DNA from: a virus
Virus record (IMG/VR): IMGVR_UViG_3300007513_000028
Location: 5,674-69,673 of that record
Direction: 5' to 3' (one strand)
Length of the DNA: 64,000 nt
The notes under the pieces were generated by a model. That model saw nothing but the letters and a program-made list of their open reading frames with translations. It was not told the origin of the DNA and did not search any database. This document shows, in pieces, positions 4,363 through 49,060 of this stretch; positions within the stretch are counted from its first letter, which is position 1, and each line of letters opens with the position of its first letter. The position numbers and the translations under genes were made by a program.

Positions 4363-4382
4363 CATAAAGGGAGGACTGTAAA

Positions 4383-6673: not shown

Positions 6674-9600
6674 ATGGCAGCAATAATTAAAACTGCAAAT
6701 ACGCATCAGACTTCTCTTTTGGTGTCAGAACAGATCCCGGATTTTATTCGGGGAGATCATCCTAAATTTGTTACATTTATTGAAAAATATTATGAGTTTC
6801 TTGCTCAGGCTAATTCTGGAATTGCGACTTCGGACGGCCTTTCTCATTATTATGGCGCAGATCATGCAACAAAGGTTATTACCGATATTAATGATATTGA
6901 TACAACAGATCTTGATAAGTTTATTGGGTCTTTTCAAAAACAATATGGCCACGGTCTTCCCCAACAGGTGGCAGATGCAGCCGACCGAAGACTTTTATAT
7001 AAGAATCTAGTTGATTTTTATCGTGCAGTAGGAACAGAAGATTCCTTTAAGATGCTCTTTCGCCTTTTGTTTAATGATGAAATTGAACTCTATTATCCGT
7101 TTCAGGATGTTTTGATTGCCAGCGGAGGAAATTATACAAAAGAATCTAGGATTAGGGTTAATTATGTTGAAAATCTGAATGACATTGAGAATACGAGGAT
7201 TGTTGGGGCCACTTCGGGCGCATACGGAACTGTAGAACGGGTCCAAGTTCTTCCAGGGGGAAGTGACTCGTTTATTACAGGAAGAATTGGAAACACATCT
7301 ACTTCATATACTTCTGGAGTGTCAAATACTGAAATTTATGACCCGATGAAATATCTTGAACATGGAAGTTCTACAGCCCACATATACATGACAGATCAAT
7401 CTGGAAATTTTGATTTCTTTGAAGATATTTATGTGGATGATGTCAATTCGACAGTTTCAAATACAATAGTGTTGCCCATGACAAAAAGTATGTTGGTTTT
7501 TGAGGATTTTCAGTATGGATCTACAAATAATGTTATTTCTATGTATGATGGGCTGGTTCATCAGCGGGCAAATAGCACAAACCCTCCGTGGGGGTCTGCA
7601 AATATTGATTATAGCAATACCGGAATATGGCATACCACCGGAGACGGCACCGGGGAAATTAAATTAGTCTCCAATGTCTATGGCTCATATGGTGGGGTTG
7701 TATTAGAAATTGGAAACAATAGTACGCTCGCTTCTGCGACTGGCGATCAAAGACATATTGTATTTGCAAAGAATGTGGGAATTGGTGGTGAGGATCGTCT
7801 TTATCGAATGTCCATTCGTGCCAGGGATTTGGGTGGAAATTCTGCCGTATCTGTTGCCGAAGGAAATCGCTTTTCGGCCGGAGTTTCTTGCGTTCGTCAT
7901 GACCTCAGAAAGTTGAGTGCAGACAATTACAAAGATCAATGGGAAGATCCACTTTGGTTGGTTTCTCATAAGCAGGCAATTGATGATGAGTTTTTTGTAT
8001 ATACGGCATATTTCAAGGGAAGAGAAACAAGAAGAAATGTTGGAGGTTCTCCCTATTCTGCAAAGAATTATGGCAATGGCGGCCGAAGGGATTTGACGAG
8101 CGGAACCCGATATTATAATTCTGCCCAGAAGGCAGTAGATCGAGAAGTGCTTCTTCCGTTTAATACCACTTTCATCAAACCAACCTTCAAGGTAAATGAG
8201 CCCGGAGATGGTGCAACATATTCACAGGGAATCACACAGATTGATTTTATTTCTCTTGAAGAACTTACTCCCATGCAGACTCAATTGGGTATGCATAGCG
8301 GAAGTTATAGTGACGAGCGGAGTCTTCTTTCGACAACAGGGGCACATATACAGGATGGCCATTATTGGCAAATCTATGCATATGATATTCGTTCCAAACA
8401 ACAAATAAAAGACTATGCAACGGTCGTCCGCGAGGCAGTTCATCCAGCCGGAATGAAGATGTTCGGCACGACAATTTCAGAGAGTTCTCGAAGAATGAGT
8501 GACATGATTGATGTGAAGCCTGGGAAGATTACACAACTTACAGACAATTCGTTACTCATCGACCAATACCCTGCATGGTCCCCCGATGGCACCCAGATTG
8601 CTTTCTCCCGCTATACCAATCCCGCCCTGACCCTCTATGAAATTTTTAAGATGGATGTCGATGGAACTAATGTTCGGAGCCTCATGCCAGGGTGGGGGTC
8701 CGGCTTGTACCCTGCATGGTCCCCCGATGGCACCAAGATTGCCTTTGAGTCAAAAATACATAGCTGGCTGTGGGGGGATGCTGATGCGTATGCTCCTGTT
8801 GGTTCATATCAAAATGAGATTTATGTGATGGATGCGGGCGGAGTTGTTGATACCGACGAATTTCCGTTTCACACGGCAGCGTCTTTAACAAGACTCACAC
8901 ATGATGCTCAGTCGGTGACTCCCCTGCGGGCTGATGCGCCCATCGCCGACCTTCCAAGAAAGCGGCAGCCCGCATGGTCCCCCGATGGCACCAAGATTGC
9001 CTTTGTCGCAAACACAGCCATCGCCGAGGGCGAATTCAGGGACCAAATCTATGTGATAAACGCAGATGGAACAAACCAGACGAGACTCACGAATAGTGCT
9101 ACGGGTGATCGCGGTCCTTCATGGTCCCCTGACGGCACCAAGATTGGCTTTTACTCCTACCCGCATCCGAATGATGCTGGGTCTGGTAATTACAATAAAA
9201 TCTTTGTGATGAATGCAGATGGGACGAATCGGACGAAAATCCCAAATCATTCTCCTTCTATCCACCCCCCCGGTGTCATGAATGATTACTATCCACGGTG
9301 GTCCCCCGATGGCACCAAGGTTGCCATTCAATCATGGAATATGGCTCATGCCGATTCGGCCCCGCCCAATCACAATTTTGATATTAAAGTGATGAACGAA
9401 GATGGAAGTAATCCGATATGGCTGACGAGTAATGTTGCGGTTGATCGGGGCCCCGCATGGTCCCCTGATGGCACCCAGATTGCCTTTTCCTCTTCCAGAG
9501 GCGTCGGTAATTTTGGAAACACTGACATCTATGTAATTGACGTAAAAGAACGTTCCAACACAAACCTCCTCGACACCTTCTCCCCGGAATCTCTGGATTC

Positions 9601-12109
9601 CCTTGCAGGATGGTGGAGCGCAGATTCGGTTGTTCCAGAAAATTTTCAGGTCAAGAGAGATGTTCCGGGAGGAACCTCAAATGCAGTTTTTGGCTCAACT
9701 AAAAATCGTCTTCCCCTCGGTTGGTTTTCTGACTTTGATGATACTGGTGTAATTGTTCCTGACGATTTTGACCACATTGGCCAAACCTATAGAAATGTGT
9801 CAGCAAATAATGCTTCGGTGTCTTCGATGTTATTTTCTGATGGTGGGGATGCCCGCGACCGTCTTGGATTGGCTGCGGACACAAAAAATAAAAGAGGTTT
9901 GGACAAAAACATATTAAAACTAACTTCAGATAGTTGGACAACACTCTCCCAAGTCGGCTTGCACTATAACCCAGATGACCAAAAATATTGGCAGGCAGGC
10001 GGCCGCTCTGATTATTATTATCCAATTGTATTAGAACCATTCAAAATGTGGGTTCTTAGTTATTGGGAAATGACATCGAATGTTATGACTGAGGTGGCTC
10101 AGGGACAAAATTATAGTGGGATGTCTGCAACCCTGGCTACCGCAAATTCTTCTACTGTTTTAAGGGTAAATTCCACACATTCTCATGTATCTTCTGAGTA
10201 TGGAGATTCCGATTTTTATAGCCAGGTGGGCCATGTCCGTGGCTATGGGTTGCAAGAAAACTATGTATGGCAAAGAAATGCAACAACATTGGATATGCGG
10301 AGATCTCCGGCAACCCGGGCCCGGCTGTCAATAAGCATTCCTCATAGAATCCCAGCCGGAGGAGACTATTCGGCAAATGTAGTACAATGGTTCGATGGGT
10401 TTATGCTCGAAGAATATTCTAATACTGTTCATGGCTGGATTCCCGGCCTTACGGGCGAGGGCACAAGCGGGACTGCTCATGGATATGATGCCGTTTTCCC
10501 ATATAAAACTCCATATGTCAAGCCAGGATACTCTGGAGCAAACGTTATTTCATGGAACGACCGAAGCCCAAACAAGCATCATGTGTATGCAAATACTCAT
10601 GGTGGAATTTTTTATACCCCTCAGTATGTTGCCAATGCAATTAACGGTATGCCTGCGATTCGCTTTTCGGCAAATACAGTAATCAATAATCCAACGCCAA
10701 GGAGATCTGCCTATGTGTGGTCTGACCACACAGGAAGCGCAAGCAAGGTATATGAATGGAGTTCCATTGGTGGCCCGGGAACAGACAAGCCTCCGACTGT
10801 AGGCTTACAGGCAACAAAGAGTCTTGCTTCTAATACACTTTCCGTTCCTGTTGCAAATACATGGACAGTCATGGCGGTTGTTCAATCTAATCTTACAATC
10901 AATTCTTCATTTTATGACTCCACTCTTAATCCAATGATAATCAATTCTGGGTATGGCGGAAACAAGGACTCTCTATCAGACGGCGCATTAAACCAGCCCG
11001 GAACGTTATCTTTAGGATATGATGTTGATGGAACAATGGGCGCCGTTTTAATCAATACAACAAATTCAACAGGTGGAATTGAGCAGACAAATACGGCAAC
11101 GGTTTCGACGTTCGGGGCCGCCTCTCCCAATACTGCCAGACCTTTGACAAATACTTCTTATGCCACAGGAAAAAATGTATTCAGAATTGTTGGTGTTTCT
11201 ATCAATGCTGCATCTGGGTCAACTTCCGAACTTTTGAATTTCCATGTTGATGGTCGTCGGTTTTCAAATTCAGAAATTAATAATATTTCAAACGATTTGA
11301 GTCGAACTGGGTTGAGTAATCAATTACAGCAGAATTATGTTACTTCGATTGGTGCCTGGGCACCATCAAATAATACAATTTGGGACACAGGAACTCATGG
11401 TGTGAATGCAAAATATCCATACGGAACTGCAAGTTGGGACGGAGATATTGCAGAAATTGTTGTATTCAATGAAAAACTTTCAAATACAAAAATTGCACTT
11501 GTCGAAGGGTATCTGGCTCACAAATATAGACTGCAAGAACATCTAATTCACAAAGACGGAACCACAAACGAAACCGAAGTATATCGGTGGGAATATGCAA
11601 ACACGCAAAATGGATGGGAGTTTTTGAACCAGCATTCCTCTGTCCCCATTACATATGTGTGGGAAGGCGGAGATTCCAATAATTATATTCAAGTCACCGG
11701 GTCTGGTCAACAGACAATGCAAATTACCTTGCCGACCCACATTCATGGAGCCGCATATGACAAGGTAGGATTTAGATATAAGATGACCGCCGCCGGAATG
11801 GAGCCAACATCAAACACATATGCATTCAAATGGAAGAACGATGATAGTGAAACCTTACATTCCCTCCCTGATCTCGGAGATGATGGCCACAACGGGCTTA
11901 ATGTCTGGACGGAGAAGTATTTTGACTTGTCTGGTCAGGCTGAATGGGTAGGAAAGAAAATTACATATTTGCAGTATGATATGAATGAGGGCACCGAAAC
12001 AGTAAACCAGATAGATTGGGTGTATGTGTCAGGAAATAATCATCCGCATCCATATAGATACAATGCCCCCACAGCAGTTGGAGCAAATAATTGGAATATT
12101 AATTATTAA
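6674..12109 (+). CDS. gp7: Baseplate wedge initiator gp7-like, enlarged by inserted jelly-roll, TolB-like propeller and LamG-like domains
   Basis: QIPDFIR..HPKFV.FIEKYYEFL, FYRAVGTEDSFK.LFR.LF and IQDGHYWQ.YAY..HPAGMKMFG motifs; lies between gp6 and gp8. Confidence 0.85.
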   Translation: MAAIIKTANTHQTSLLVSEQIPDFIRGDHPKFVTFIEKYYEFLAQANSGIATSDGLSHYYGADHATKVITDINDIDTTDLDKFIGSFQKQYGHGLPQQVADAADRRLLYKNLVDFYRAVGTEDSFKMLFRLLFNDEIELYYPFQDVLIASGGNYTKESRIRVNYVENLNDIENTRIVGATSGAYGTVERVQVLPGGSDSFITGRIGNTSTSYTSGVSNTEIYDPMKYLEHGSSTAHIYMTDQSGNFDFFEDIYVDDVNSTVSNTIVLPMTKSMLVFEDFQYGSTNNVISMYDGLVHQRANSTNPPWGSANIDYSNTGIWHTTGDGTGEIKLVSNVYGSYGGVVLEIGNNSTLASATGDQRHIVFAKNVGIGGEDRLYRMSIRARDLGGNSAVSVAEGNRFSAGVSCVRHDLRKLSADNYKDQWEDPLWLVSHKQAIDDEFFVYTAYFKGRETRRNVGGSPYSAKNYGNGGRRDLTSGTRYYNSAQKAVDREVLLPFNTTFIKPTFKVNEPGDGATYSQGITQIDFISLEELTPMQTQLGMHSGSYSDERSLLSTTGAHIQDGHYWQIYAYDIRSKQQIKDYATVVREAVHPAGMKMFGTTISESSRRMSDMIDVKPGKITQLTDNSLLIDQYPAWSPDGTQIAFSRYTNPALTLYEIFKMDVDGTNVRSLMPGWGSGLYPAWSPDGTKIAFESKIHSWLWGDADAYAPVGSYQNEIYVMDAGGVVDTDEFPFHTAASLTRLTHDAQSVTPLRADAPIADLPRKRQPAWSPDGTKIAFVANTAIAEGEFRDQIYVINADGTNQTRLTNSATGDRGPSWSPDGTKIGFYSYPHPNDAGSGNYNKIFVMNADGTNRTKIPNHSPSIHPPGVMNDYYPRWSPDGTKVAIQSWNMAHADSAPPNHNFDIKVMNEDGSNPIWLTSNVAVDRGPAWSPDGTQIAFSSSRGVGNFGNTDIYVIDVKERSNTNLLDTFSPESLDSLAGWWSADSVVPENFQVKRDVPGGTSNAVFGSTKNRLPLGWFSDFDDTGVIVPDDFDHIGQTYRNVSANNASVSSMLFSDGGDARDRLGLAADTKNKRGLDKNILKLTSDSWTTLSQVGLHYNPDDQKYWQAGGRSDYYYPIVLEPFKMWVLSYWEMTSNVMTEVAQGQNYSGMSATLATANSSTVLRVNSTHSHVSSEYGDSDFYSQVGHVRGYGLQENYVWQRNATTLDMRRSPATRARLSISIPHRIPAGGDYSANVVQWFDGFMLEEYSNTVHGWIPGLTGEGTSGTAHGYDAVFPYKTPYVKPGYSGANVISWNDRSPNKHHVYANTHGGIFYTPQYVANAINGMPAIRFSANTVINNPTPRRSAYVWSDHTGSASKVYEWSSIGGPGTDKPPTVGLQATKSLASNTLSVPVANTWTVMAVVQSNLTINSSFYDSTLNPMIINSGYGGNKDSLSDGALNQPGTLSLGYDVDGTMGAVLINTTNSTGGIEQTNTATVSTFGAASPNTARPLTNTSYATGKNVFRIVGVSINAASGSTSELLNFHVDGRRFSNSEINNISNDLSRTGLSNQLQQNYVTSIGAWAPSNNTIWDTGTHGVNAKYPYGTASWDGDIAEIVVFNEKLSNTKIALVEGYLAHKYRLQEHLIHKDGTTNETEVYRWEYANTQNGWEFLNQHSSVPITYVWEGGDSNNYIQVTGSGQQTMQITLPTHIHGAAYDKVGFRYKMTAAGMEPTSNTYAFKWKNDDSETLHSLPDLGDDGHNGLNVWTEKYFDLSGQAEWVGKKITYLQYDMNEGTETVNQIDWVYVSGNNHPHPYRYNAPTAVGANNWNINY
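8571..9490 (+). repeat. Six in-frame PD40/TolB-type repeats (WSPDGT[KQ][IV]), near-identical at DNA level
   Basis: Core tggtcccc[ct]ga[ct]ggcacc[ca]ag recurs near 8576, 8717, 8975, 9122, 9299 and 9458. Confidence 0.9.
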
Positions 12110-12118
12110 ATAATGTAT

Positions 12119-12126
12119 TATAAATA
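12119..12126 (+). promoter_or_regulatory. T4-type late promoter TATAAATA
   Basis: Exact consensus in the gp7-gp8 intergenic region. Confidence 0.85.
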
Positions 12127-12156
12127 GTAATATACATCTGTCAGGAGACATACTCT

Positions 12157-13878
12157 TTGCCATCTTTTATTGGAAAAAAGTTTAGCGTATACAACGCAAA
12201 CACATTTGCACATTCATTTGCAAGAGATCCTATATATCTTTATGTAGGAAAGGTTGCCGCCTGGGCCGACGAAGACAATCCTCCTTCGGCAAATGATGTT
12301 CCCGCAGATCATAATAATATATGGAACAAAATGGCTGGTTTGGTTCGTGTCAATCGAAATCAAGTTTCTCTTGGAATTACGCGAAATGATTGGTTGACTG
12401 GAACCAAATATGAAATGTATCATTCTGCAAACACCAAGTTGGGGACCAATTATCATGTTCTTGCAGGAGTGATGGACAGAGATGTATATAAATGTATTGA
12501 CAACAATGGATATTCTCCATCTTCGTCAAAACCAACACACAAAAACTTGGGAGCCACGAAAGAAATTGATGGATATGTCTGGAAATATATGTATACCATT
12601 CCAGAAACAACTTTCAAAAAGTTTGCAACATCAACCGTAATTCCTGCATTCAGAGATGGAGATGTTTCGAGTTTTAGTAAATTAGGAAGGATTCTTCATC
12701 TTCCCATTTCTGCAAACAGTAGTACAGGAATTGGTGCATATTATCGTGGCCACGGATTTGTCAATGGCAGCTATTCTGCTCTTGCCTCGAATGCAACTAT
12801 TTACACAACGGTTCATGCAAACTCTGCAACAAACCAGTTGAAAATAATTGCAGATTCTGGTCTGGCGATCCAACAAGACTACTATAATAATTGTGCATTC
12901 ATGATTACATCAGGAAAAGCAAAGGGGACTTATAGGAGAATTTCTGATTCTTGGCCTGATGGTGTCGAGAGAGATGTTGGATATTCACAAGACAAGGCAA
13001 CAAATTTATTTTTTAATACTTCGGTCAGTAATATTGCAAATGGAGACATGTTTAAGATTGGTCCGATAGTGACTGTATCTGGCGATATAAATGGTCGAGG
13101 ATTTTTGGGAATTGGAAATGTTAACAGATATGGAAATGTTACTTCTATTGATGTTGCATTGACCGGAACTAATTATGCAAATTCAGATGCAACTGTTTCT
13201 GTTTTGGGCCATTATCATGCCACAACAAATTCTCTGTATGACGGTACGGGTGCATTGGTAGATCTTGCAATTCCCCCATCGGGCGGAGGCCATGGATATA
13301 ATCCTCTGATGGAATTGAATGCAAAATATGTAATTGTTTCTCCAGAAACCCCTCTACCAAAAGATCATCAGACAGGAATTTTTGCAGGATATAATAATGA
13401 AATTCGACAGGTGGGTTTGATAAAGAATCCAATAAATTCTGTTACTGGACTGCCTGCATATGGTGCGTCTTATGATGCACGAACAACTCTTTATTTTGCT
13501 TCTCCGACCAGTATTAAATTTGAAAAAGACCAAAGGGTGTACAATACGAGTGACCCGGTTGGATCTGAATCTGCATCGGGCCTAGTTCATAGTATTTGTG
13601 GAGATTCTCAGAATCAATATTTGGCATTATCGGATGTGCAGGGGCAGTTTGCAAATGGAGATGTTGTTTATAATAGATTAGGAGATACTGCAACAATTGC
13701 AAGTGCCAATTTGGCATTTCATAAGTATCCAATTAATTCAGAAATAAAACCTGTGAATTCAGTAATTAATCCTCAACTTGCTAAATATACAGGAGAAATA
13801 TTATATCATGAAAACATTTCTCCAATTACAAGAAGAATAGACCAAAAAGAAAATTTTAAATTTGTTTTTGAGTTCTAA
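12157..13878 (+). CDS. gp8: Baseplate wedge gp8-like (TTG start)
   Basis: YLYVGK..AW.DE..PP, VYKCIDN..S..KPT, DGYVWKYMYTI, RQVGLIKNP and C-terminal YTGEILY.ENISPI.R..DQKE.FK.VFEF motifs; AGGAG Shine-Dalgarno. Confidence 0.9.
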   Translation: MPSFIGKKFSVYNANTFAHSFARDPIYLYVGKVAAWADEDNPPSANDVPADHNNIWNKMAGLVRVNRNQVSLGITRNDWLTGTKYEMYHSANTKLGTNYHVLAGVMDRDVYKCIDNNGYSPSSSKPTHKNLGATKEIDGYVWKYMYTIPETTFKKFATSTVIPAFRDGDVSSFSKLGRILHLPISANSSTGIGAYYRGHGFVNGSYSALASNATIYTTVHANSATNQLKIIADSGLAIQQDYYNNCAFMITSGKAKGTYRRISDSWPDGVERDVGYSQDKATNLFFNTSVSNIANGDMFKIGPIVTVSGDINGRGFLGIGNVNRYGNVTSIDVALTGTNYANSDATVSVLGHYHATTNSLYDGTGALVDLAIPPSGGGHGYNPLMELNAKYVIVSPETPLPKDHQTGIFAGYNNEIRQVGLIKNPINSVTGLPAYGASYDARTTLYFASPTSIKFEKDQRVYNTSDPVGSESASGLVHSICGDSQNQYLALSDVQGQFANGDVVYNRLGDTATIASANLAFHKYPINSEIKPVNSVINPQLAKYTGEILYHENISPITRRIDQKENFKFVFEF

Positions 13879-13881
13879 ATA
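13874..13881 (+). promoter_or_regulatory. Possible late promoter variant (TCTAAATA)
   Basis: TAAATA core overlaps the gp8 stop, upstream of the VrlC-like gene. Confidence 0.45.
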
Positions 13882-13913
13882 ATATAAGAAGTTAGATTTT
13901 AAAAGGAAATCTC

Positions 13914-16900
13914 ATGCCTATCGACTTTAACAGACATCCATATTATGATGATTTTAATGAAGATAATCAATATTATCGTTTGTTGTTTCAGCCTGGCCGG
14001 GCAGTTCAGGCCAGAGAGTTAACACAAATACAAACTTTCTTTCAAAATCAACTTGAACGTCTTGGTAAGCATATATTCAAAGATGGGGCAAAGGTGTGGG
14101 GAGGGAAAATTATATATGACAGGAATGATACAAAATGGCTGGCAGTAAAGGCGCAAGACATCCACGGAAATCCTGTCAGAATTCGTGACATCACACCCGG
14201 CCTTCTTATTAGAAAAACTTCTCAGGCATCATCGGGCGGAGCAGATATTGCTGTTGAGGCAAGAATTACTGGAGTGATTCCTGCCGAACTTCATGATCCA
14301 GATACAATTTATTTTAAATGGCTAAAGGGAGAAGATGAAGGATTTGGTGCAGATGAAACATTAAGAATTTGTGATGCCGTTAGCGGAAGGGTCAGATATA
14401 CAGTAACTACATTAGAATTAGATTCACAGAATAAACAACGACATTATGGGTCTTCTTCTTCATTTACTGTCGAGCCGGGAGTTTATTTTTGGAAGGGTCT
14501 TTTTATTAAATCGGCAGGTGGGAGTATAAAACTTGCCAAATATAATAATACAACAACATATCGCGTTGGCTTGGCAATAAGTGAGTCCATTGACCAAACT
14601 GATCCGCGAAGTCTTGATCCATCTTCGCATACTTCAAATTATTCGGCGCCCGGTGCAGATAGATATAAAGTAGAAACAACTTTAATTAAGATTGGAGAGG
14701 GAGTTCTTTTTGATGAAAGAACTGTTCCAAATTTTATTGAAATTGCAAGAATTGATACTGGAAATCTTTTGGTCAGCGAAGACGGAACAGGAGATGGGAT
14801 TTATAGTGTTCTGGGTCGTGAATTAGCCAAACGAACATACGAAGAGAGTGGAAATTATATTGTTCAGGGATACAATATTAATGTTAAAAATAAGACAACA
14901 AGGGATAATCCAAAACTTGTTGCAAAATTATCAGAAGGGGTTTCTTATGTTAAGGGGAATCGCCATTCGTTAAATCATCAAAATATTGTTGAGGTTGATA
15001 AGGGTCGTGATCTTCTTACCGAAGATCTTAATCTAAAAAATGATTATGGAGATAATTTTGTTTTGGTCTATGATCGAGCGGCAGCGGTTGCTCATCCAGA
15101 AAATGCAAATGGGCTTTTTGTTGTAGGTTCTGGTGCCGGAAAATCTACCGCAGACACCGATCTTGAGGGCCGTCGCGGAGAAGCAGTTTCTGTGCATTGT
15201 GTTCCTCATAAACTGGTAAGAGATCATTCGCTGACCACGACAGACACATGGAACTCCACTTTGATTGGAACCGTCCGACCCATTCAGATGGTATACAATA
15301 AAAAGGCATCGACAAAATCAAAACAGGCAGGAAGGCTTGGAGATGTATATAGTCTCTGGCTGGGCGATTTTCAGAGTTCTCCAATTGCAAATGTGACGAG
15401 CGTCACAAATATTATTACTGATGTTTCTGCAACAGGAAATGCAGCCTTTACAACGTATACACACTCGACCTGGCCAAACGGAATTACTGCAAACGATAAG
15501 ATTTCTGCTGTCGGTTCTTCTGATGCCAATTTTAATGTTGATTTTAGGGATGTTGTTACTTCAAATGCAACTGCAATTGTTATTGCGGGCGGTGAATTTT
15601 CAGGAGCATCTACAACAGGAAGCCCGATGTCACTTCATCGAACGTCTGGCAAAAACACAAGCCCGTATTCTACGCTCGTTCTTGATGAAAATTCTTCGGC
15701 TGCATGGAATGGATCATATATTGGCGCAAGCATTTCGGTAGGAAATTGTTCTCCGAGAACTATTGTTGATTATGTCGGAACTAACTCCTCGGCAGAAACA
15801 AAATACAATATACGAAATGGGTGGTCAAAGCGAGGAATGGTTATCCTTGACAGACCGCTAGAAGAGGACGGGGCCCCATACATACCTCAATATGGAGATA
15901 AGTATACAATAAACCTCACAATGAAGCAGGCTCGATCTGTTGTCTATAATCAAAATATGACTTCGACAGGTGTCGGCCAATATCCAGCCACACTAAATCA
16001 AATGTGGGACATTGATCCAATATCTGGAATCAAGGATAAGGATATAAGTCTTTTGACTGATGAAGTATATGGGAATCGAGTTGATGGGGAGTGTAAATAT
16101 AATAAGTATGGAGAAACGCCAGAGGGAGAAGATGCTCTTTTGTTTTCTACGGGCCGTCAGGCAACCAAGACGCTAAAGACGGTTGGAACTTTTGACGGTG
16201 GCTTGGCTGGTAATACTATAGTTTATTATACAGAATGTTCTGTCAAGACCGCCGGAGGCAGCGCCGCCACCTTAGACTTTGGAACTGCTCCGGTGGCAAG
16301 CGATTTTGTATTTTTTGCACGACCGAAGGCATATCCATATAGTACAACTTTGGATACTGATTCTACAGCCGAAATAAAAGAGAACTTTATTCTGTCCAAT
16401 ATGACCACGGGCGAGATCTTGACTGATAAGATTACCCGAGTTGTGGTCGATGGTGCCGATAATATTACAGTCACTACCAGCCCCAATTTTGCTTCTGGTC
16501 AGAAGTATGTTCTCATATTTACTGCACGGGCAGAATTTGCAAGCCCGGCTTACAAGAGTAGAATTGCTGCAAATACATCGCATTCGATTACTGTGCCTGC
16601 CAGCGGAGATTTGACAGATTTTTCCAGAGGGCAAGTGTATGTTGCAGACGGATATGGAACAACTTCGGGTTCTCGAATTTCTTTATTGAAACCAGACGGA
16701 TTTAAATTGCATAAGGTGGTTCATCAGGTTGATAATACAACTGCCAATACGGATATTGCAAATGCAGACAAGGATGTAACTTCTCGATTTAGTTTTGACT
16801 CCGGGCAACGAGACATGTTTTATGACAATGCTTCTATTATTTTGAAGCCGGACGTTGATGCTCCGACAGGAAATCTTTTTGTTATCTTTGACCATTTCAA

Positions 16901-19940: not shown

Positions 19941-19969
19941 ATGTAGAAATGTTTAGGAGATTTTAGCCA

Positions 19970-22930: not shown

Positions 22931-22954
22931 AAAAATAAAAATGGTTTTATAATA

Positions 22955-23185
22955 ATGTCACGTTTGGTTAAAACAGATAATCCAGACTATATGAAAGACG
23001 AAGACAATGGGGCATTGGTTTCTACGAATGTTCGTGCATTCAATGAACATAAACTGAAAGAAGAGCAGACACAAAAATTAAAAAATCAAGAAAACGACCT
23101 AAATAATATTAAATCTGAAGTATATGAACTTAAAAATGAAATAAGTGAAATGAAAGATTTACTTCAACAACTTTTGAAAAAATAG
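22955..23185 (+). CDS. Small coiled-coil protein typically found after VrlC-like genes in T4-like phages
   Basis: KD..NGALVSTN motif followed by heptad LNNIKSEVYELKNEISEMKDLL; synteny. Confidence 0.7.
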   Translation: MSRLVKTDNPDYMKDEDNGALVSTNVRAFNEHKLKEEQTQKLKNQENDLNNIKSEVYELKNEISEMKDLLQQLLKK

Positions 23186-23198
23186 GACGTTTTAATTA

Positions 23199-40838: not shown

Positions 40839-40858
40839 TTGGAGACATATATAATATT

Positions 40859-43585
40859 ATGGCAGACAGAGTATTACTTGGAAAGAATACAAATACCGGG
40901 GAGGTAGGGCTTTGGGTTTCAAAACCCGGAGCCAATGTTATTCATTTGGCCGGAAATTCCTATATGGAATCCCTTGGAAATTGGTATGGGTATCAGAAAG
41001 AATTTGATGATTCTCCTGAGACTGCATGGACATTTTATACTTCGGGAACAGGGGATGATGGAATGACTGATGTGGGGGTCAATGGATATGCATATGACCC
41101 AGGAGATCCTGTTGGCCATTCCAACTCTCTCCGCTGGCGATGGCGTTCAGTAAGTCATGCTACTGCAAATACAAGAGTTCCACAAATAAAAAGAAGTAAA
41201 AACAATACGTTTTTAGTATCTCCAACCGGATACAGTACACGATTATATACAGAAGATTTATTTATTCAAGATACTGCTCCGTCAAGTTTATCTGGATTAG
41301 GTTATTTTGCTGGCCCTGATTCTTTTTCAGGAACAGTTCATAATGTAATTGAAATGAAAATTAGAAGAAATATGAATCACCCAGCCCCGCCGCCGTCAAA
41401 TACAAGCGATTTTAGATTTTATTTTATATCCACTCCAGTAGCAGGATGCCCGGTGACGGGAGGGTCTACTCCGCTTGCCACATTTGCAAACAATGTTGTT
41501 GGGTCCGATGGGAGTGTCTACGGTCATCCTGTTTTTTGGGCTCGAAAAAATGGCGGGGTAACTACTCAACAAAAAAATAATTATTCTGGATTTCAATTTG
41601 AATATCCTACGGGCGTCTATGCCGACACATATAATACTGGGGGAATTTGGTTTGTAGAGGCAGGCGTCACTAGCCCAGACGGAACCGGCCAAGGTATTGT
41701 TTACCCGACAGGAAAGTCATCTTCCGCAGAAAATAAATGGGATACTTTGCTTCCAGATGGGGAATGGCATATTTTAGAATGGGATATGAGTGAAGATAAA
41801 ATATGGTCTGACCCATACGGGCACATGGAAGATTGGATAGAGACAGCAAAAGCATATAATGCAGATACTTCTCCTACTGGAATAAGGCGAGAAAATCCAG
41901 AAGTTCCATATAATGAACCGCATTTAAATGATGGCCGCCGACCTTACTCTTCTGACTATAATATATCTCGGCTGATGTTTCTTCCTTTGTCGGGTATTAC
42001 TTGGAACCCAGATTGGGCAGCCTTGGACGAAGACCCAGCCAACCCTCCTTGGTTATTTGAAATTGATTATGTCCGCGTCAAAAAAAAGGGAGTTCCAAAT
42101 GATGTAGGAAAATATGGAAGCGTAAAAGATTCCTTGGTATTTTCCTCTGATTGGCAAGAAACTGGCCTTGTGCATCAGGAAGGAACCGTGACCATTGGCA
42201 CCCAAAAGGCAAACATTGACGGGACCACATCTCCAAAAAGTTTTGATAAAGCTGACCACACATCCACTCTTTCTAATGGGCTAATTACCTTTCCAAAACT
42301 TCCATACATACCTGTTGTATTATTTCAAAGATATGATGCAGCATCTGGCGGCGGAGAGACTGCAAATTCATATCCAGGGGGCGAGCAAGAATTTTCCATT
42401 GCAACAACCAAATGGGAAGACCATTTATATCCAACCATAAGCACAGACCCAAGAGGAGTTAACAAAGGTTGGGATATTAATTTGAAAACAGCGTCTGGAG
42501 TTACAGCCCAGCCCTGGTGGGGGACAATAAGTCAATTTCTTCCCTCTGAGTTCGGCGGCATCGGAGCCCCCCTCGACATTACAGATTATTCACATTACAA
42601 TCAATATGCAGACGATGGTTCTGAGATTTTTCCTTCTGTAACAGAATCTCTTCCGTGGAACGATACGCCAATCCCTGCTCCTTCTTATCGCGCCGGAAAT
42701 ACTTTTTCTTCTGACCATGCATTTTATTTTTCGGAAATGCGAACGTTTGCATATGCGCGGGCAGGAAAAGATCGTTTTTATTTGACTTGTAGAAATGCAA
42801 TTGCCCAAGAGGGCACCGAATCTTTATGGAATTTATCTCCGACACTCCCCGAAGCGGCAACAGCAAACCAAGGGGCGGCCGCATTCAATAGTTCATCCAT
42901 GAGGGAGTCATATGGAAATTGGGGAATGTTTCATCCTGCGCTTATTCTGTTTAATACTGATGGCACATGGAAACATTTTTCTGAGGGCCTGACATTAAAA
43001 CCGAGTGTCACAGACACTAATGCAAATACTTTTTTGATAGACCTAGAGGGGACCGAGGCTGGAACTGATTATTCTCAATTTAAATGGTGGTTAAATTATT
43101 CGGGGTATCCTTTTGTGTATGATGGAAGTATTGCAAGACCGTCCGACCCGATACCGACAGACAAAGCAGCATTTAAAGACAGGGCTGCCAATGGATCATA
43201 CTATGGAGATACTGGAGGATTTTATCCATATAGATACCATAAACTGCCAAGCGAGGTGGAGTTTTCAGGGCAACTTTCCTTGTCTCAATACTCAGTCAAA
43301 CGGCTGTCCTCTCCTGGGATATTTCATCCAGAAGGAGTGGTTCCAAAAAGCAGCCCGGCATTTAATAACAGAAATGCCGCCGATGGCCTGACTCTGCATG
43401 ATCCAATATACAACCAAACAAGTTATATTGGGGGATCTGGGAACAAGGTGTCAATTGGTGGGGCTGGTGATGCCTTTCCCACCTTTGATCCCGCCAATGC
43501 AAATCCTCCAGTATACAAATATTGGGTTTTGCGAATTCCGGCATCAATTCAAGGATATACTCCCAATGAGAGTCAGGGAGGATAA
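40859..43585 (+). CDS. Putative fibre-tip/adaptor protein 1 (DRVLLGK family)
   Basis: MADRVLLGK...GLWVSKPGANV, paralogous to the next two genes; GGAG Shine-Dalgarno. Confidence 0.7.
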   Translation: MADRVLLGKNTNTGEVGLWVSKPGANVIHLAGNSYMESLGNWYGYQKEFDDSPETAWTFYTSGTGDDGMTDVGVNGYAYDPGDPVGHSNSLRWRWRSVSHATANTRVPQIKRSKNNTFLVSPTGYSTRLYTEDLFIQDTAPSSLSGLGYFAGPDSFSGTVHNVIEMKIRRNMNHPAPPPSNTSDFRFYFISTPVAGCPVTGGSTPLATFANNVVGSDGSVYGHPVFWARKNGGVTTQQKNNYSGFQFEYPTGVYADTYNTGGIWFVEAGVTSPDGTGQGIVYPTGKSSSAENKWDTLLPDGEWHILEWDMSEDKIWSDPYGHMEDWIETAKAYNADTSPTGIRRENPEVPYNEPHLNDGRRPYSSDYNISRLMFLPLSGITWNPDWAALDEDPANPPWLFEIDYVRVKKKGVPNDVGKYGSVKDSLVFSSDWQETGLVHQEGTVTIGTQKANIDGTTSPKSFDKADHTSTLSNGLITFPKLPYIPVVLFQRYDAASGGGETANSYPGGEQEFSIATTKWEDHLYPTISTDPRGVNKGWDINLKTASGVTAQPWWGTISQFLPSEFGGIGAPLDITDYSHYNQYADDGSEIFPSVTESLPWNDTPIPAPSYRAGNTFSSDHAFYFSEMRTFAYARAGKDRFYLTCRNAIAQEGTESLWNLSPTLPEAATANQGAAAFNSSSMRESYGNWGMFHPALILFNTDGTWKHFSEGLTLKPSVTDTNANTFLIDLEGTEAGTDYSQFKWWLNYSGYPFVYDGSIARPSDPIPTDKAAFKDRAANGSYYGDTGGFYPYRYHKLPSEVEFSGQLSLSQYSVKRLSSPGIFHPEGVVPKSSPAFNNRNAADGLTLHDPIYNQTSYIGGSGNKVSIGGAGDAFPTFDPANANPPVYKYWVLRIPASIQGYTPNESQGG

Positions 43586-43591
43586 TCTCAC

Positions 43592-44914
43592 ATGGACAGA
43601 GTCCTCCTGGGAAAAAATTTGACAATGGAATATGAATACGGTTATCGAGAAGAATTTACTCCTACGGGATCAGGAACCTCAAGTTTTGAAATGTATGATC
43701 CCGGAGTTGGTGATGCAAGCTCACTTACCAATTACGGCCCAGGGTTTTTATCGTGGACGACCGGAGCAAAGTTTAAAAGAAGTGGAACAGATACTTTATT
43801 ATATACTGGAAACTATGGTGGGTTAATTTTTTCTACCCCTGCCTTTGTTGACCCACAGTCTGTACCTTGGGGGTCTGCTCCATCTTCTGATGCAATTAAT
43901 CCAAACCTATATCCAATTGTTGAAATGCGACTTCGACGACTTCAGACTTCTGGAAATTATCCAGCCGATGCCGCCGGAGGATTCAAATGTTTTTTTGTTG
44001 CAAAAAATCAAAACCAGACGGGTTTCTCCACAGGCTCTCCGACATTTTATGTTCAATGGAATTGGCCTGTTCATCTTTCTTCGGTCGATGACGATTATTC
44101 CACATATAATTCAACTTCGGTTAATTGGAAGACGGTTTTCCCTGACTCAGAGGTGGCTGCCGGACCAAGTGATTATAAAATTTTGAGATGGGATATGGAT
44201 AAAAATTCTAATATAACAAAAAATTGGAATGCATTGGGGAACAATAGTAGAGTCATTGTGGTACGGTTTGATTTTCATACATCCGGCGCAACAGGATCTG
44301 GTTGGGTTCCAGAAAGCGAACCCATGTGGGAAATTGATTATGTCGGGGCCAGGGCGCGAGAATATTTGAATTTTAGTAAATATTTTTATAGGTCGGGCAA
44401 GACTGGGCTTTTTATTTCAAAACCCGGAGCCAATGTCATGTCATGTTCTGATGGAGATTTAATTTTTGATTCTAGTGCAGATGCATACATGCAGACACTT
44501 CAGACAGGATTTGTCAATGTTCCCCCCGCGCCCGACAGAAATACACCCAAAACAGTTGCAGTTCATACAGGAGTAAGAACTCCGGGAAATACCGGAACAG
44601 CCGTGGTTCATTGGAACGTCATGCTGCCATCATCAAACGTTCATGATAAATTTTTTTCATCTAGTTATGGCACCGCCTCGTCGGAGTGTCAGGTCGTGAC
44701 TAATAATCCATTTGTGAATTTAGATTATATTAATTTAGAAGGCCCATTAAAAACTGGATTGGTTCCTGGGTTTGGTCTTTCGGCGCGAACCTCTGCAAAT
44801 ACCGATAACCATCCAGGCTCTGCAAATACTATTGATATATACTTTACCAATGGTTCTCCAAATAAGAATCAACTTTTGGCTTGGACATTATTCAAAGAGA
44901 GGGGTGACACCTAA
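43592..44914 (+). CDS. Putative fibre-tip/adaptor protein 2 (DRVLLGK family)
   Basis: MDRVLLGK, then an insert, then GLFISKPGANV..LIFDSS; GGAGG Shine-Dalgarno. Confidence 0.7.
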   Translation: MDRVLLGKNLTMEYEYGYREEFTPTGSGTSSFEMYDPGVGDASSLTNYGPGFLSWTTGAKFKRSGTDTLLYTGNYGGLIFSTPAFVDPQSVPWGSAPSSDAINPNLYPIVEMRLRRLQTSGNYPADAAGGFKCFFVAKNQNQTGFSTGSPTFYVQWNWPVHLSSVDDDYSTYNSTSVNWKTVFPDSEVAAGPSDYKILRWDMDKNSNITKNWNALGNNSRVIVVRFDFHTSGATGSGWVPESEPMWEIDYVGARAREYLNFSKYFYRSGKTGLFISKPGANVMSCSDGDLIFDSSADAYMQTLQTGFVNVPPAPDRNTPKTVAVHTGVRTPGNTGTAVVHWNVMLPSSNVHDKFFSSSYGTASSECQVVTNNPFVNLDYINLEGPLKTGLVPGFGLSARTSANTDNHPGSANTIDIYFTNGSPNKNQLLAWTLFKERGDT

Positions 44915-44920
44915 AAAATT

Positions 44921-47900
44921 ATGGATAGAGTTATCTTAGGGAAACATGCAAATACTCTTCTCAATGAAGTTGGGCTTTATGTATCAAAACCGGGAGCAAA
45001 TGTTCTAGATCCACAGACATATCTTGATGGCAATTTGATGTTTTCATCGACAGATGCAAGTTCTTTGAATATAATCCAATCGGGGGCATTTAAGATAACC
45101 TGTGAGCGAGAGCCTGTGGCTTTGTCTGGGACTACGCCATCTGTTGGAACTCATAATTTAGAAAGAATATTTCAAATATCATTAAAAGATATTTTTGGAA
45201 GCGGGGGAAATCATTGCCCATGCCCACCAGCCATCGAGGGATTTGCCCACACGACCGCAACTGCGGCTGGCAGAAGAAAAGATAGGTTTATCTGGGCAAC
45301 ACATTACAGGGCGGTGGGGACTCCTGAACAAAAACAGGCAGCAGTAGATTTTGGTCTGGCCCAAAGTCCCCCCATTACCATACCGTATGACACCTGGGCA
45401 GACAATAGGGATGATGCACAAAGGGCTTTGAGAGATGCAACTGGCCTGTGGAGTTTTTATATGGATGTTGCCGGAGCAGAATCCAATCTTCCTATAAATT
45501 ATAATAATCCTCATTATCCCGGTGCCGGACATTGCAAAACTGTTTTTTCTGAAACACGACATGATTATGGAGGGGCAGGAAATCCAACATCCATCCCTTC
45601 TGGATATATATCAACCTCCCCGGTTTATGATAGCGAATGGATATGGGACGGGGATGTTGCATACAATCCCATTAATGGTTCGTTTGTGGGCGCCGGGCCC
45701 TGGGGAGACTCTCGGCTCGATGAAGGCACCCAAGAATTTTCTAACTATGAAGCGGGTGGGAGTTGGGCGCAGCAGACAGACCTTGTTGTTCGCTCTTGTG
45801 TTGTAACTGACGGAGCGCATGGAGGCGATCCAGTCCAACCCGATCCCGCGCTCATGGGCGGCGTTCCTAGTGACCTAAAGGTTGGAGCAATGCTAAGAAT
45901 GCCAGAATCAAGTTGGGGCTTCGGTTCGGAAAGCCTTCCGTTTAGCACAGATCCGTTCGACCAGCGTTATGGCGAATGGGGTGACTGGGACCATCCAAAC
46001 ACCAATTTTGCCCGCGCAGCAGATTTTTGGATGGCGGTTATTCCATATGTACAGGTGCCCTATACGGACATATGGGGAGATCCCAATCATCCTCTGAGTG
46101 GCTACTACGGCCCGGACTGGCAAGTCACGGACCCAAATTGGAGTCCAGTTGTCACGATGACTCCGCAAATGTGGATGCTAAATCCAGCCATGCCCGGAAG
46201 TGCTGCCATTCACGAACTCAATGAAGAATATAAGGAATTTGGGGCAACGGTGACGACAGTAACAAACCTTGGAATTGGAATAGACGAGCATTTCTATCAT
46301 GATTCTGAACGACCAACAAACCTTTCTGCAATGACCTGGGGCGGTTGGTATAGTTCAAAGGAAGACGTTATGGAAGGAAATTATATAGACAGAGGAAATG
46401 TTACAATTCCTATTATTAATCCGCTGCCCGATGGAGAAATTCCAGAAGTTGCAATTCGTTTTGCAGTCGGGTCTTCAGGAAAAGATGGAAAACAGGTAAG
46501 ATTTCATCCCTGGTATGCAAATGTTGCAACAACCCCAACATCCGATTGGGCCCCAGACTGGGACGACTTTACATATACAAATGAAGATGAAATTGTCCAC
46601 ATGGACAGCCCTTGGGTACGATTTAAATGGGGAGGAATTGGAAGTAATCTTTATAGTGGAGTGTCTCTTCATGAAAATGCTAGAGAGGCGTGGGAGGCAA
46701 TATGGACTCCAGAAGAACTTGATGCGCTTGAATCTTTGGGTGTTGCGCTTCCAGGGGTGAATCCAGTAGGCACTCCCAAATCCCGTAAATTATGGGAAAG
46801 CGCATTGGGCCATTCTGTGGGAGTTTCTGGTCTTTTTCATTTTTCCAATTCAACTCATCTTTCTGTAGAAGCACATATGACTCCCACACACACAGGCTTG
46901 CGAAGACCTGTTGTTTTTTCGCCACTTGACCACGCAGCCTGGGATTCGCGAAGGAATGCCCTAGAAGATTATGCCGCAATAAAGCGCAAAACTCCTTCTG
47001 CGGGAGACGGATACACGGGCTGGCCGCGTTCGTATACAAACTTAGAATATCTTCCTGCAACAACCCATGATAGATTTGGTTCTGGTGCGATTGGCGGCAT
47101 AGGCACGGCAGCGCCCCAACTGAATGGAACAGATTCTTTGTATGGTTGGCTCGGTCATCCATTACAATATTTTTCAAATCCATTTTCAAATACCATGTGT
47201 ACATTTTATACACATATGCAGCCCCCGTTTATAGACCAATATGACCCCGCCACCTATCCTCTCCATTATCATGGAAGGCAATGGGCACTAGAAATCGACC
47301 AAGTAAATCTAGGCGAGACTTATCATACAGATTCTTTGGGAGTTTCTCATCGAATTCCTGTATGGGGTCCAGATATTCCAGGAATTTCTTCACAGGCAGA
47401 TAGTGATGAATGGTGGGTGCTGGGCGGCTTTTTGTCCGAAGGAGAGGGAATTCAGTGGCCACCAGGGCATGAGTTTGGAAATTGGAGTGATGATGTAGCT
47501 TGGCAGGGTAGTATGGGGATGGGAGGGGCTGGCCCTGCAAGAACTTTGGGCCTTTCTGAGGGTGATTCTAATTGTTGGGATACTTATTATTGTTCGTATG
47601 TGATATATTCACACGGAAGAAAACCAGATGTGTCGGCTCAACAATCAAATACCATTACTGTGAGCGCCCGCTCCTCTACTCTTGCCGGGGGAAATATGAT
47701 AAACCCATTGAAGTACAGGGGGGATGCAGACGATGATGATATGAGATATTTTAATTTGAATTTTCCTGATGATTTTGTAGGAACTCCCGGCGATCCTGCA
47801 ACAGACCCATTTCATAATCACAGAGATGAATCTGGAAGAATATATGGAAGTCTGAATATTATTTTTGAAATTCCTGAATATGATACCCCCGGAGTTGATC

Positions 47901-49060
47901 CAATGTATATTGGTTCGGAGGAGTTTGAACAGTTTTTTATGAAAACCGGATCTGGCCTTTCTGATTTTAAACTTATGGGAAAACCAAAGCCAGCAATCAC
48001 CTTTGATCTTTCTGGTCGTAACTTTAATTTTATTAATAATCAAAATCTTAATTTGATTATCAAAAATCATGGAATTGTTCTGGGCGGTGGCGGGGCTGGT
48101 GGATATGGCGGCCATTATAATTATGACCTCAACCCCGGAGAAACTGTACCCGGAGGAAAAACTTCGGCAGGCGATGCTCCCTTAAAAATTGGCGGTGGTG
48201 GCGGCGGTGCCGGGGGCGGAAGTGGTCGTGGAAATAATCCTGCTGGCACTCTACATGATTCAAATTATTCCTATGCAGGAACAGGAAAGGCAGGCAGCGG
48301 ATATGGTCGTGCAATACTAATTGGCGGTTCATTAGACGAAACATGGAGCGCAGAAATGCAGGGCGAGACTGGTACGGATATTACATTGCACACATCAGCA
48401 AATCCAAGTTATAGAAATGTCTCTGGTGGGGCAGGAGGTCTTGCCGGAACTGTAGAAACAATAAATCGCGTGGACTCGCTTCAGCCCGATTATGGTTCTG
48501 ATGGAGGAGACTGTTTTTTTATTATTCATGACGAAACATATCTTCCTAACATAGAAATAATAAATATTGGTTCGGGTTCTAATTCTACACAAGTGAATGA
48601 TGCAATGATGCGTTCCGGTGGTGGTGGCGCAGGTGGTGGCGCAGGCGGAGAAATTGTAAATGAAGACCGACCGTCGGGAAAGGTCTTTGGGGCGACTGGC
48701 GCAGAGGCAGGATATAATGGAAATCCCGACACTTCGACCAGCGGAGAAAATAGTAGGTATCAGTGGCCTGGTGGGGCTGCGGGATATTTGGTGGGCGCAT
48801 ATGCAGACAGTCTCTTTGATGTTTTTGATGGAGAATATAATGTCGGCTGGCCTGAAGTTCCGCCGGGTGCCGTGACAACATACCCAGAAAATACAGAAGA
48901 AGGAATATATGACAAGGTTCGTGCGGCATACGCAGGAAAAATTACAGTAAGAAATGAAGCATCAACAGAAACAATTTATGCAAGACACCCCAACGGAGCC
49001 ACCACGCCGGGAACCGCCGGATGGTCCCTTGGAGTAGGTTCTTCTGAATATAAGAAATAA
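44921..49060 (+). CDS. Putative fibre-tip protein 3 (DRVILGK family) with C-terminal glycine-rich gp38-like adhesin domain
   Basis: MDRVILGK...GLYVSKPGANV..LMFSS; C-terminal LIIKNHGIVLGGGGAGG, GGGGGGAGGGSG and SGGGGAGGGAGG motifs. Confidence 0.7.
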   Translation: MDRVILGKHANTLLNEVGLYVSKPGANVLDPQTYLDGNLMFSSTDASSLNIIQSGAFKITCEREPVALSGTTPSVGTHNLERIFQISLKDIFGSGGNHCPCPPAIEGFAHTTATAAGRRKDRFIWATHYRAVGTPEQKQAAVDFGLAQSPPITIPYDTWADNRDDAQRALRDATGLWSFYMDVAGAESNLPINYNNPHYPGAGHCKTVFSETRHDYGGAGNPTSIPSGYISTSPVYDSEWIWDGDVAYNPINGSFVGAGPWGDSRLDEGTQEFSNYEAGGSWAQQTDLVVRSCVVTDGAHGGDPVQPDPALMGGVPSDLKVGAMLRMPESSWGFGSESLPFSTDPFDQRYGEWGDWDHPNTNFARAADFWMAVIPYVQVPYTDIWGDPNHPLSGYYGPDWQVTDPNWSPVVTMTPQMWMLNPAMPGSAAIHELNEEYKEFGATVTTVTNLGIGIDEHFYHDSERPTNLSAMTWGGWYSSKEDVMEGNYIDRGNVTIPIINPLPDGEIPEVAIRFAVGSSGKDGKQVRFHPWYANVATTPTSDWAPDWDDFTYTNEDEIVHMDSPWVRFKWGGIGSNLYSGVSLHENAREAWEAIWTPEELDALESLGVALPGVNPVGTPKSRKLWESALGHSVGVSGLFHFSNSTHLSVEAHMTPTHTGLRRPVVFSPLDHAAWDSRRNALEDYAAIKRKTPSAGDGYTGWPRSYTNLEYLPATTHDRFGSGAIGGIGTAAPQLNGTDSLYGWLGHPLQYFSNPFSNTMCTFYTHMQPPFIDQYDPATYPLHYHGRQWALEIDQVNLGETYHTDSLGVSHRIPVWGPDIPGISSQADSDEWWVLGGFLSEGEGIQWPPGHEFGNWSDDVAWQGSMGMGGAGPARTLGLSEGDSNCWDTYYCSYVIYSHGRKPDVSAQQSNTITVSARSSTLAGGNMINPLKYRGDADDDDMRYFNLNFPDDFVGTPGDPATDPFHNHRDESGRIYGSLNIIFEIPEYDTPGVDPMYIGSEEFEQFFMKTGSGLSDFKLMGKPKPAITFDLSGRNFNFINNQNLNLIIKNHGIVLGGGGAGGYGGHYNYDLNPGETVPGGKTSAGDAPLKIGGGGGGAGGGSGRGNNPAGTLHDSNYSYAGTGKAGSGYGRAILIGGSLDETWSAEMQGETGTDITLHTSANPSYRNVSGGAGGLAGTVETINRVDSLQPDYGSDGGDCFFIIHDETYLPNIEIINIGSGSNSTQVNDAMMRSGGGGAGGGAGGEIVNEDRPSGKVFGATGAEAGYNGNPDTSTSGENSRYQWPGGAAGYLVGAYADSLFDVFDGEYNVGWPEVPPGAVTTYPENTEEGIYDKVRAAYAGKITVRNEASTETIYARHPNGATTPGTAGWSLGVGSSEYKK

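Follow-up and report, generated by a model that had tools for sequence, protein, structure and literature searches.

Can a single phage furnish several of its tail proteins from one set of accessory domains? The question is raised by positions 6674–49060 of the window analysed here, a 64-kb part of one viral contig of 69,673 bases (IMG/VR record IMGVR_UViG_3300007513_000028) belonging to an uncultured marine T4-like myovirus. In this region, the initial annotation had seen the same few passenger domains inserted into five structural proteins. T4-like phages of unknown host abound in the sea, and hardly any annotation exists for their adsorption proteins. The comparisons presented below support the reuse of a small set of passenger families across different structural scaffolds, varying between related phages; the main support for this plug-in idea comes from the predicted architectures of two proteins, the baseplate wedge protein gp7 and a giant fibre-like protein, in relatives of the phage.

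Scaffold proteins

Three kinds of conserved scaffold were shown, by comparison of predicted proteins, to carry putative accessory domains: gp7; the giant, in which A and B units alternate; and small proteins headed by DRVLLGK...SKPGANV. They are encoded by the following open reading frames (ORFs), where lengths are given in amino acids (aa) and positions, in nucleotides (nt), are those of the window.

6674–12109, plus strand: gp7-like baseplate wedge protein, 1811 aa, with four passenger regions (Pfam Baseplate_wedge; between gp6 and gp8)
23199–40838, plus strand: fibre-like protein of 5,879 aa (the giant), with repeated A and B units and passengers after B (10 A and 9 B matches at E ≤ 1e-3)
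40859–43585, plus strand: DRVLLGK-scaffold protein 1, 908 aa, with domain Y2 at aa 39–408 (nt 40973–42082; Y2 hidden Markov model (HMM), E = 8.3e-67; alignment A7)
43592–44914, plus strand: DRVLLGK-scaffold protein 2, 440 aa, with Y2 at aa 12–255 (nt 43625–44356)
44921–49060, plus strand: DRVLLGK-scaffold protein 3, 1379 aa, with only the N-terminal scaffold in common (BLAST to ORF 40859, E = 2e-7, aa 2–43)

The first of these is predicted to be a T4-type gp7, both by its N-terminus, which scored 30.5 bits against Baseplate_wedge (cut-off 27), and by its position between ORFs of the gp6 and gp8 families. When gp7 was compared with cultured phages by tblastn, the match was confined to the N-terminal 10–15%. 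The giant produced no match to Pfam or PHROGs as a whole protein, and its 17 homologues (3739–5319 aa) are all unnamed; the order of A unit, B unit and passenger along it is regular. Two further repeats were seen in the giant: a pair of tandem units of ~185 aa at aa 579–985 (24933–26153; 30–35% identity, E to 6e-13), and a 43%-identical pair at aa 998–1146 and 4334–4479 (26190–26636 and 36198–36635), which lie ~3,300 aa apart and outside the A-B-Z pattern.

The DRVLLGK proteins gave no whole-protein match in Pfam and none in PHROGs, and a pattern scan of viral contigs for relatives of ORF 43592 returned none. In ORF 43592 the Y2 domain precedes SKPGANV; in ORF 40859 and its relatives it follows this motif. 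The scaffold of the ORF 43592 type consists of DRVLLGK, SKPGANV and, further on, IDIxFxNGSP...WTLY; relatives P0007–P0013 carry a variable insert of 100–300 aa near the C-terminus, which is a PD40 propeller in P0011 and, weakly, in P0009, while the window copy has Y2 near the N-terminus instead. Passengers were placed in gp7, the giant and ORFs 40859 and 43592, but the fifth protein of the initial annotation, ORF 44921, has only the N-terminal scaffold in common with the others: none of the nine toolkit domain HMMs matched it, nor did any Pfam or PHROGs family or, at E < 0.1, any PDB sequence. Its C-terminal part (47640–49060) is glycine-rich, with several GGGG(A)GG runs.

Family Z occurs in both gp7 and the giant

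The passengers of gp7 were delimited as follows.

8489–9553, plus strand: PD40 beta-propeller insert, gp7 aa 606–960 (Pfam PD40, 129.7 bits over 5 stretches, cut-off 20.9)
9626–10432, plus strand: gp7 copy of family Z, aa 985–1253
10469–11593, plus strand: concanavalin A (ConA)/LamG-like region of gp7, aa 1266–1640, its fold weakly supported
11561–12106, plus strand: Y1, the predicted C-terminal jelly roll of gp7, of carbohydrate-binding module (CBM) type, aa 1630–1811

Those of the giant are:

27231–28016, plus strand: Z copy 1, aa 1345–1606
28626–29216, plus strand: X passenger, aa 1810–2006 (45–53% identity to copies in the giants of related phages L062, L067 and L068)
29727–30536, plus strand: Z copy 2, aa 2177–2446
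31293–32159, plus strand: Z copy 3, aa 2699–2987 (nearest relative, Z in the gp7 of L071, 38.6% identity)
32772–33602, plus strand: Z copy 4, aa 3192–3468
34317–34979, plus strand: Z copy 5, aa 3707–3927
35151–35843, plus strand: Laminin_G_3 domain 1, splitting an A unit (Pfam, 29.7 bits, cut-off 27.6)
37035–38357, plus strand: Z copy 6, aa 4613–5053, with a nested domain (Z HMM positions 2–275 over aa 4614–5053)
37761–38258, plus strand: nested Y (hhalign against gp7 Y, E = 1.1e-4; homologue in the gp7 of L070)
39171–39968, plus strand: Laminin_G_3-type domain 2 (jackhmmer link to domain 1, independent E value (iE) = 1.5e-54 after iteration; member of alignment A8)

Whole-protein blastp, all against all, overlooked the internal repeats of the window proteins, and tiles were used for BLAST instead. 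Tile BLAST and HMM searches identified the six Z copies of the giant (per-copy HMM E values from 1.6e-52 to 8e-96), with starts that agree with the positions given by the initial annotation. Copy 6 has ~170 aa extra ahead of its last strand; because the HMM still covers positions 2–275, this stretch was considered to be truly nested.

The gp7 copy was not detected by BLAST between window proteins, whether whole or tiled, and an HMM made from the six giant copies matched gp7 only faintly (iE = 0.0014 and 0.034). Profiles were then compared, one built from collected gp7 homologues and the other from Z domains of related giants; hhalign joined them over 163 columns (30 vs 15 sequences; Prob 99.3%, E = 3.5e-20), and a smaller set produced a similar result (8 vs 15 sequences; Prob 98.6%, E = 1.4e-15). 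The gp7 LamG and gp7 Y profiles, used as controls against the Z profile, gave E values of 0.28–0.48. Among 409 six-frame ORFs of at least 60 aa in the contig, the gp7-Z HMM matched gp7 (1e-59) and the giant (6.9e-41) only. The earlier claim that family Z is present once in gp7 and six times in the giant was thereby upheld.

A phylogeny was estimated from 31 rows: the Z matches spanning 180 or more HMM positions and, as outgroup, five copies of the gp7 type. The six copies of the window did not cluster together; each paired with copies from other contigs (support 0.64–0.95), and they are therefore old paralogues. Recent duplication of Z within this genome, for which the initial annotation had proposed a phylogeny as the test, was rejected on this basis.

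Passenger domains differ between related phages

The gp7 orthologues of L063, L071 and L070 contain passengers of the giant type, Z, X, LamG and Y among them. In L063, the nearest relative of the gp7 Z is a Z of the same phage's giant (49% over 87 aa, tree support 0.97), and an X domain with 39.7% identity to aa 1824–2000 of the window giant is nested in the LamG-like region. In L070, ~1,575 aa of gp7 contain Z, a Laminin_G_3 domain split into three, a nested Z and a Y of the giant type. Passenger number and order also vary among the related giants, where some A-B pairs are without a passenger. Passengers were positioned between repeat units, in loops, or nested in one another. Since the same families occupy other scaffolds and other sites in related phages, they have been relocated from protein to protein in the course of evolution.

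In gp7, for which 31 homologues were found, at least four insertion sites could be mapped. The PD40 insert was limited to the window's own cluster (among 32 rows of the homologue set) and was not present in the gp7 of L002, L004, L005, L008, L011 or L013; L011 and L013 also lack Y1 and have a different insert of 240 aa near aa 300. The gp7 homologue of L010 (L010:4590-8396) has 540 aa inserted at the same site (aa ~300), which no toolkit domain HMM matches. Comparison of insert presence and absence, which the initial annotation had suggested as a check, was favourable for the giants and for some gp7 proteins, but 25 of the 31 gp7 homologues (1408–1464 aa) were uniform, having Z, the LamG-like region and Y1 and lacking the propeller.

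LamG, X and PD40 families

When trimmed, the first LamG copy of the giant scored above the cut-off for Laminin_G_3 (PF13385; 29.7 bits, E = 8.3e-7); with looser boundaries it scored 24.7 bits. The halves of the A unit that it splits lie at aa 3947–4006 and 4218–4316. Four of the five members of alignment A8, which represents this family, matched Laminin_G_3 at E ≤ 0.1. The X passenger had no Pfam match, and PDB sequence searches with the X, gp7 LamG, giant LamG, Z and Y1 profiles gave no match at E < 0.1.

Membership of Pfam PD40 (PF07676) for gp7 aa 606–960 was supported by both score and repeated blades. PD40 was observed in three scaffolds: the window gp7, proteins of the ORF 43592 type (clear in P0011, weak in P0009), and proteins of the ORF 40859 type, the last by sequence motifs only (visible repeat motifs in P0047 and P0050).

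Family Y comprises more than one sequence family

The initial annotation had placed one family Y at the C-terminus of gp7, in the giant, and in ORFs 40859 and 43592. Compared directly, the inserts of the two ORFs were weakly similar (E = 0.002 and 0.006). With the insert of ORF 43592 as query, phmmer recovered from 1.84 billion representatives proteins of the ORF 40859 type, namely P0047 (4.9e-18), P0048 (4e-15), P0050 (9.7e-5) and P0053 (6.5e-4), and alignment A7 displays a run of motifs common to both inserts; P0049, P0051 and P0054 were omitted from A7 as spurious repeat proteins (WD40/kinase and similar). Being joined firmly by these intermediates, the two inserts are judged from their sequences to be true homologues (Y2).

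Links among the remaining members were of a different order. Y1 aligned with the nested Y of the giant over 52 columns (hhalign, Prob 56%, E = 1.1e-4), the score of 33.3 being reached in none of 200 shuffles (maximum 24.3); Y2 aligned with Y1 at Prob 12% (E = 0.0024), the score of 27.5 being reached in none of 150 column shuffles (maximum 20.0). Unrelated, real beta-rich control pairs scored 10–20, below both links. Both links are weak and span the last strands only, and a jackhmmer search of the collected loci with Y pieces found one relative, in L070. A single Y family was rejected; sequence comparison instead indicates two families, Y1 and Y2, with a weak link between them.

Structures were predicted for gp7 aa 985–1811 and for ORF 43592. 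Values of the predicted local distance difference test (pLDDT) were 62–87 for Y1, while block means for Y2 were 45–91 over aa 11–260. The best solved match was identical for Y1 and Y2, that is, residues 482–629 of the megatron protein of roseophage R4C (PDB 8gtc chain M), and their further fold matches overlapped (CBM28, 27, 22, 15, 29 and 11). A language-model look-up placed Y1 and Y2 nearest the same clusters, including DUF4979, CBM27, Lyase_N, Exop_C and CBM30. With a fold match covering most of the domain, Y1 and Y2 are both predicted to be CBM-type beta-jelly rolls (galactose-binding-domain-like). Identity to the megatron domain was 14–18%, and therefore the fold alone is held in common. 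What remains of the original family Y is accordingly the homology of the ORF 40859 and ORF 43592 inserts and a common predicted fold for Y1 and Y2, but not a single family.

When the entire model of the gp7 C-terminal part was submitted to Foldseek, the matches were multi-sandwich proteins (a glucosyltransferase, reelin and Cry proteins) at a root-mean-square deviation above 20, which is only a sign of several consecutive beta-sandwiches in the predicted model. The best BFVD match of the ORF 43592 model had E = 2.8e-5 but a template modelling (TM) score of 0.23, and is therefore not a clear match; it was to a 'Tip attachment protein J central straight fiber domain' protein.

These results bear on an explanation in which the motif likeness is merely the common look of beta-sandwiches, with the Y domains, and the LamG-like regions of gp7 and giant, being independent acquisitions and no cassettes passing between proteins. 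It would account for the low Y1-Y2 probability, for the lack of a profile link between the gp7 LamG-like region and the giant LamG copies (hhalign, E = 0.39–0.81), for the initially reported Y motif spanning the last two strands only, and for BLAST between window proteins finding the N-terminal scaffold alone. It cannot hold for Z, for X (at 39.7% identity between gp7 and giant) or for Y2, nor for the Z, LamG and Y domains of giant type that the gp7 proteins of relatives contain, and for the weakly linked families it is improbable.

Genomic context

By gene content, the window is identified as a T4-type structural module running from gp53 to gp23. Pfam recognized T4-type genes in T4 order (gp53, gp5, gp25, gp6, gp7, gp8) leading into the region studied, and gp14, gp15, small and large terminase, sheath, tube, portal, prohead protease, scaffold and gp23 on its 3' side. 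The interval between gp8 and gp14 contains a DUF4815/VrlC-type protein in two ORFs, the 5,879-aa ORF, and the ORFs of 908, 440 and 1379 aa.

12157–22930, plus strand: gp8, then the DUF4815/VrlC-type protein as two ORFs (13914–19940 and 19970–22930; Pfam Phage-Gp8 and DUF4815, phrog_438 and phrog_358)

The two adjacent DUF4815/VrlC-type ORFs correspond to successive parts of phrog_358 (profile positions 5–812, then 1419–1577). As the initial annotation had noted, T4 gp9, gp10, gp11, gp12 and wac are not recognizable; Pfam and PHROGs detected none of these families in ORFs 13914–49060.

The major capsid protein has at most 53% identity to those of cultured phages (cyanophage, Methylophilales-phage and Stenotrophomonas-phage proteins). 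Searches against cultured phages, by megablast with 20 kb and 21.7 kb of window sequence and by tblastn with a 2000-aa piece of the giant, found nothing. The proportion of G+C was higher in passenger-rich stretches (8001–12000 and 24001–48000; 0.43–0.46) than in conserved genes (0.39–0.40), and GC skew was 0.00–0.04 over 8001–12000 and 24001–44000, compared with 0.10–0.16 in conserved genes; amino-acid composition or foreign origin could be the cause.

Putative function of the passengers

Positions 6674–49060 probably encode the peripheral baseplate and fibres, that is, host-adsorption gear whose domains would face outward, bind sugars and set host range. CBM or lectin folds were placed on more than one tail protein (gp7, the giant, ORFs 40859 and 43592) and varied between relatives. 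The passengers would project from the baseplate rim and the fibre shaft and bind host surface polysaccharide, each with low affinity but in many copies, giving high avidity and a reversible first attachment; their gain, loss, duplication and exchange would retune host range. Glycan binding is inferred here from likeness of predicted folds. The original description of the passengers as probable glycan-binding jelly rolls applies to Y1 and Y2, as predicted, but not to PD40, a propeller, or to LamG, a ConA-like sandwich.

A more specific proposal, that gp7 and the giant fibre are display platforms drawing on one domain pool and that cassettes pass between baseplate and fibre of the same phage, is put forward tentatively. 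The gp7 Z of L063, sister to a Z of its own giant, is a candidate example. The repeated A/B units and a few permissive loops of gp7 would serve as landing sites for cassettes, and host range would therefore evolve by domain grafting, rather than by swapping of whole fibre genes.

Several observations weigh against these readings. The gp7-type and giant-type Z domains form old, separate clades, and no recent cassette is common to the gp7 and giant of the window; there is therefore no sign of recent exchange within this genome, and the portable toolkit survives as families distributed across scaffolds and differing in relatives. Family Z does not qualify for Pfam CBM_4_9 (PF02018): scores were 13–16 bits against a cut-off of 25.9, below it in every Z, and 2 of 14 members matched at E < 1, although the sub-threshold matches fall on the same model positions (~48–119) in Z copies from three phages. 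In the predicted model, pLDDT was 31–68 over the Z stretch of gp7. The earlier report of LamG-like domains in gp7 and twice in the giant is sound for the giant, whose two copies are Laminin_G_3, but none of the eight members of alignment A4 (gp7 aa 1266–1640) matched Laminin_G_3 at E ≤ 0.1, and the gp7 call depends on a low-confidence model. The Y1-Y2 and Y1-giant Y probabilities are low, and the shuffles do not control for a common beta-strand pattern. PD40 copies of different scaffolds have 26–27% identity to the gp7 propeller, and the nearest gp7 relatives have a fixed Z-LamG-Y architecture. The trimeric state, the formation of a shaft by A/B units and the outward projection of passengers are assumed.

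Some of the same facts would suit a mainly structural role, in which the passengers brace, space or help to fold a long fibre and an enlarged baseplate, or dock other fibres; the A-B-passenger order is regular in the giant, and the Z-LamG-Y part of gp7 is constant in most homologues. This appears unlikely given that the folds matched best are those of sugar-binding modules and of a phage domain named carbohydrate-binding by its authors, and that passenger number, order and type vary between relatives as host-facing parts would. The region is also the counterpart of the host recognition cluster, a hypervariable one, of pelagimyophages and cyanomyophages (PMC7029224). The possibility that some passengers are enzymes (glycanases or lyases with a ConA-like or jelly-roll fold) cutting the host capsule was suggested by Pfam's description of Laminin_G_3 as 'Concanavalin A-like lectin/glucanases superfamily' and by Lyase_N among the language-model neighbours; none of the proteins showed a catalytic family in Pfam, PHROGs or PDB sequence searches, the folds matched best belong to non-catalytic modules, and this explanation is very improbable. 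Adsorption through sugar binding remains the preferred reading.

Comparison with known systems

The principle of plug-in domains is already published, in lactococcal 936 phages, Bacillus myophages and roseophage R4C. In the 936 siphophages, several virion proteins of a single phage bear CBM folds, which differ from one related phage to another (Viruses 2019, PMC6669499). This resembles the present case, but the 936 phages are siphophages with small proteins and a Gram-positive host, whereas here the carriers are gp7, a 5,879-aa repeat fibre and DRVLLGK proteins of a T4-like myovirus; the domain families are not the same, and binding in the present case is predicted only.

The Gp119 wedge protein of Bacillus myophage Vp4 (831 aa) has CBM16-like and CBM22-like folds, while its 341-aa homologue in Deep-Blue is without a listed match (J Virol 2024, PMC11406892). 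The CBM-bearing Vp4 protein binds host cells, and a VrlC-type fibre protein in the same work also has CBM folds (PMC11406892). Here, as in Vp4, a myophage baseplate wedge protein has predicted CBM-type folds, and sugar binding by the passengers may be inferred by analogy with it. The Vp4 and Deep-Blue proteins differ in belonging to Herelleviridae, in not being T4-type gp7 and in having few domains; a giant repeat fibre, nesting and the sharing of sequence families between wedge and fibre are not among their features as reported in the accessible text.

In R4C (vB_DshS-R4C), the megatron has a carbohydrate-binding domain at residues 482–629, so named by the authors, nested in a peripheral domain, and several carbohydrate-binding accessories are listed on different tail proteins of this marine phage (Nat Commun 2023, PMC10276861). 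That domain is the best structural match of Y1 and Y2, but R4C is a siphophage with an RcGTA-like baseplate and has one such domain, not a repeated set.

Marine T4-like phages have a hypervariable island flanked by the gene for VrlC and by gp14, a neck gene, holding unidentified structural proteins that have concanavalin A and further binding domains; in this description of pelagimyophages and cyanomyophages, T4 gp7 is stated to be absent, being replaced by VrlC (mSystems 2020, PMC7029224). The present phage differs in having both gp7 and VrlC/DUF4815, and sharing of domains between gp7 and fibre is not among the features described in the accessible part of that account. With T4 itself, gp7 shares the N-terminal Baseplate_wedge match and the gene order gp6-gp7-gp8, but the present protein, at 1811 aa, has in addition PD40, Z, a ConA-like region and a domain of CBM type, and the T4 neighbours gp9–gp12 and wac are undetectable.

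The new elements are the families themselves, the 5,879-aa A/B repeat fibre, the several insertion sites in a T4-type gp7, and proof from sequence that wedge and fibre draw on the same families. A literature search found no paper on these elements, although supplementary domain tables may bear on novelty. The domain map, the families with their alignments and the insertion sites turn ~42 kb of 'hypothetical' sequence into testable receptor-binding candidates. One domain pool serving wedge and fibre would be useful in predicting host range from metagenomes and in choosing graft points for engineered phages; if the shared pool and grafting are true, these proteins would lend themselves naturally to use as plug-and-play scaffolds when receptor binding of phages is to be engineered.

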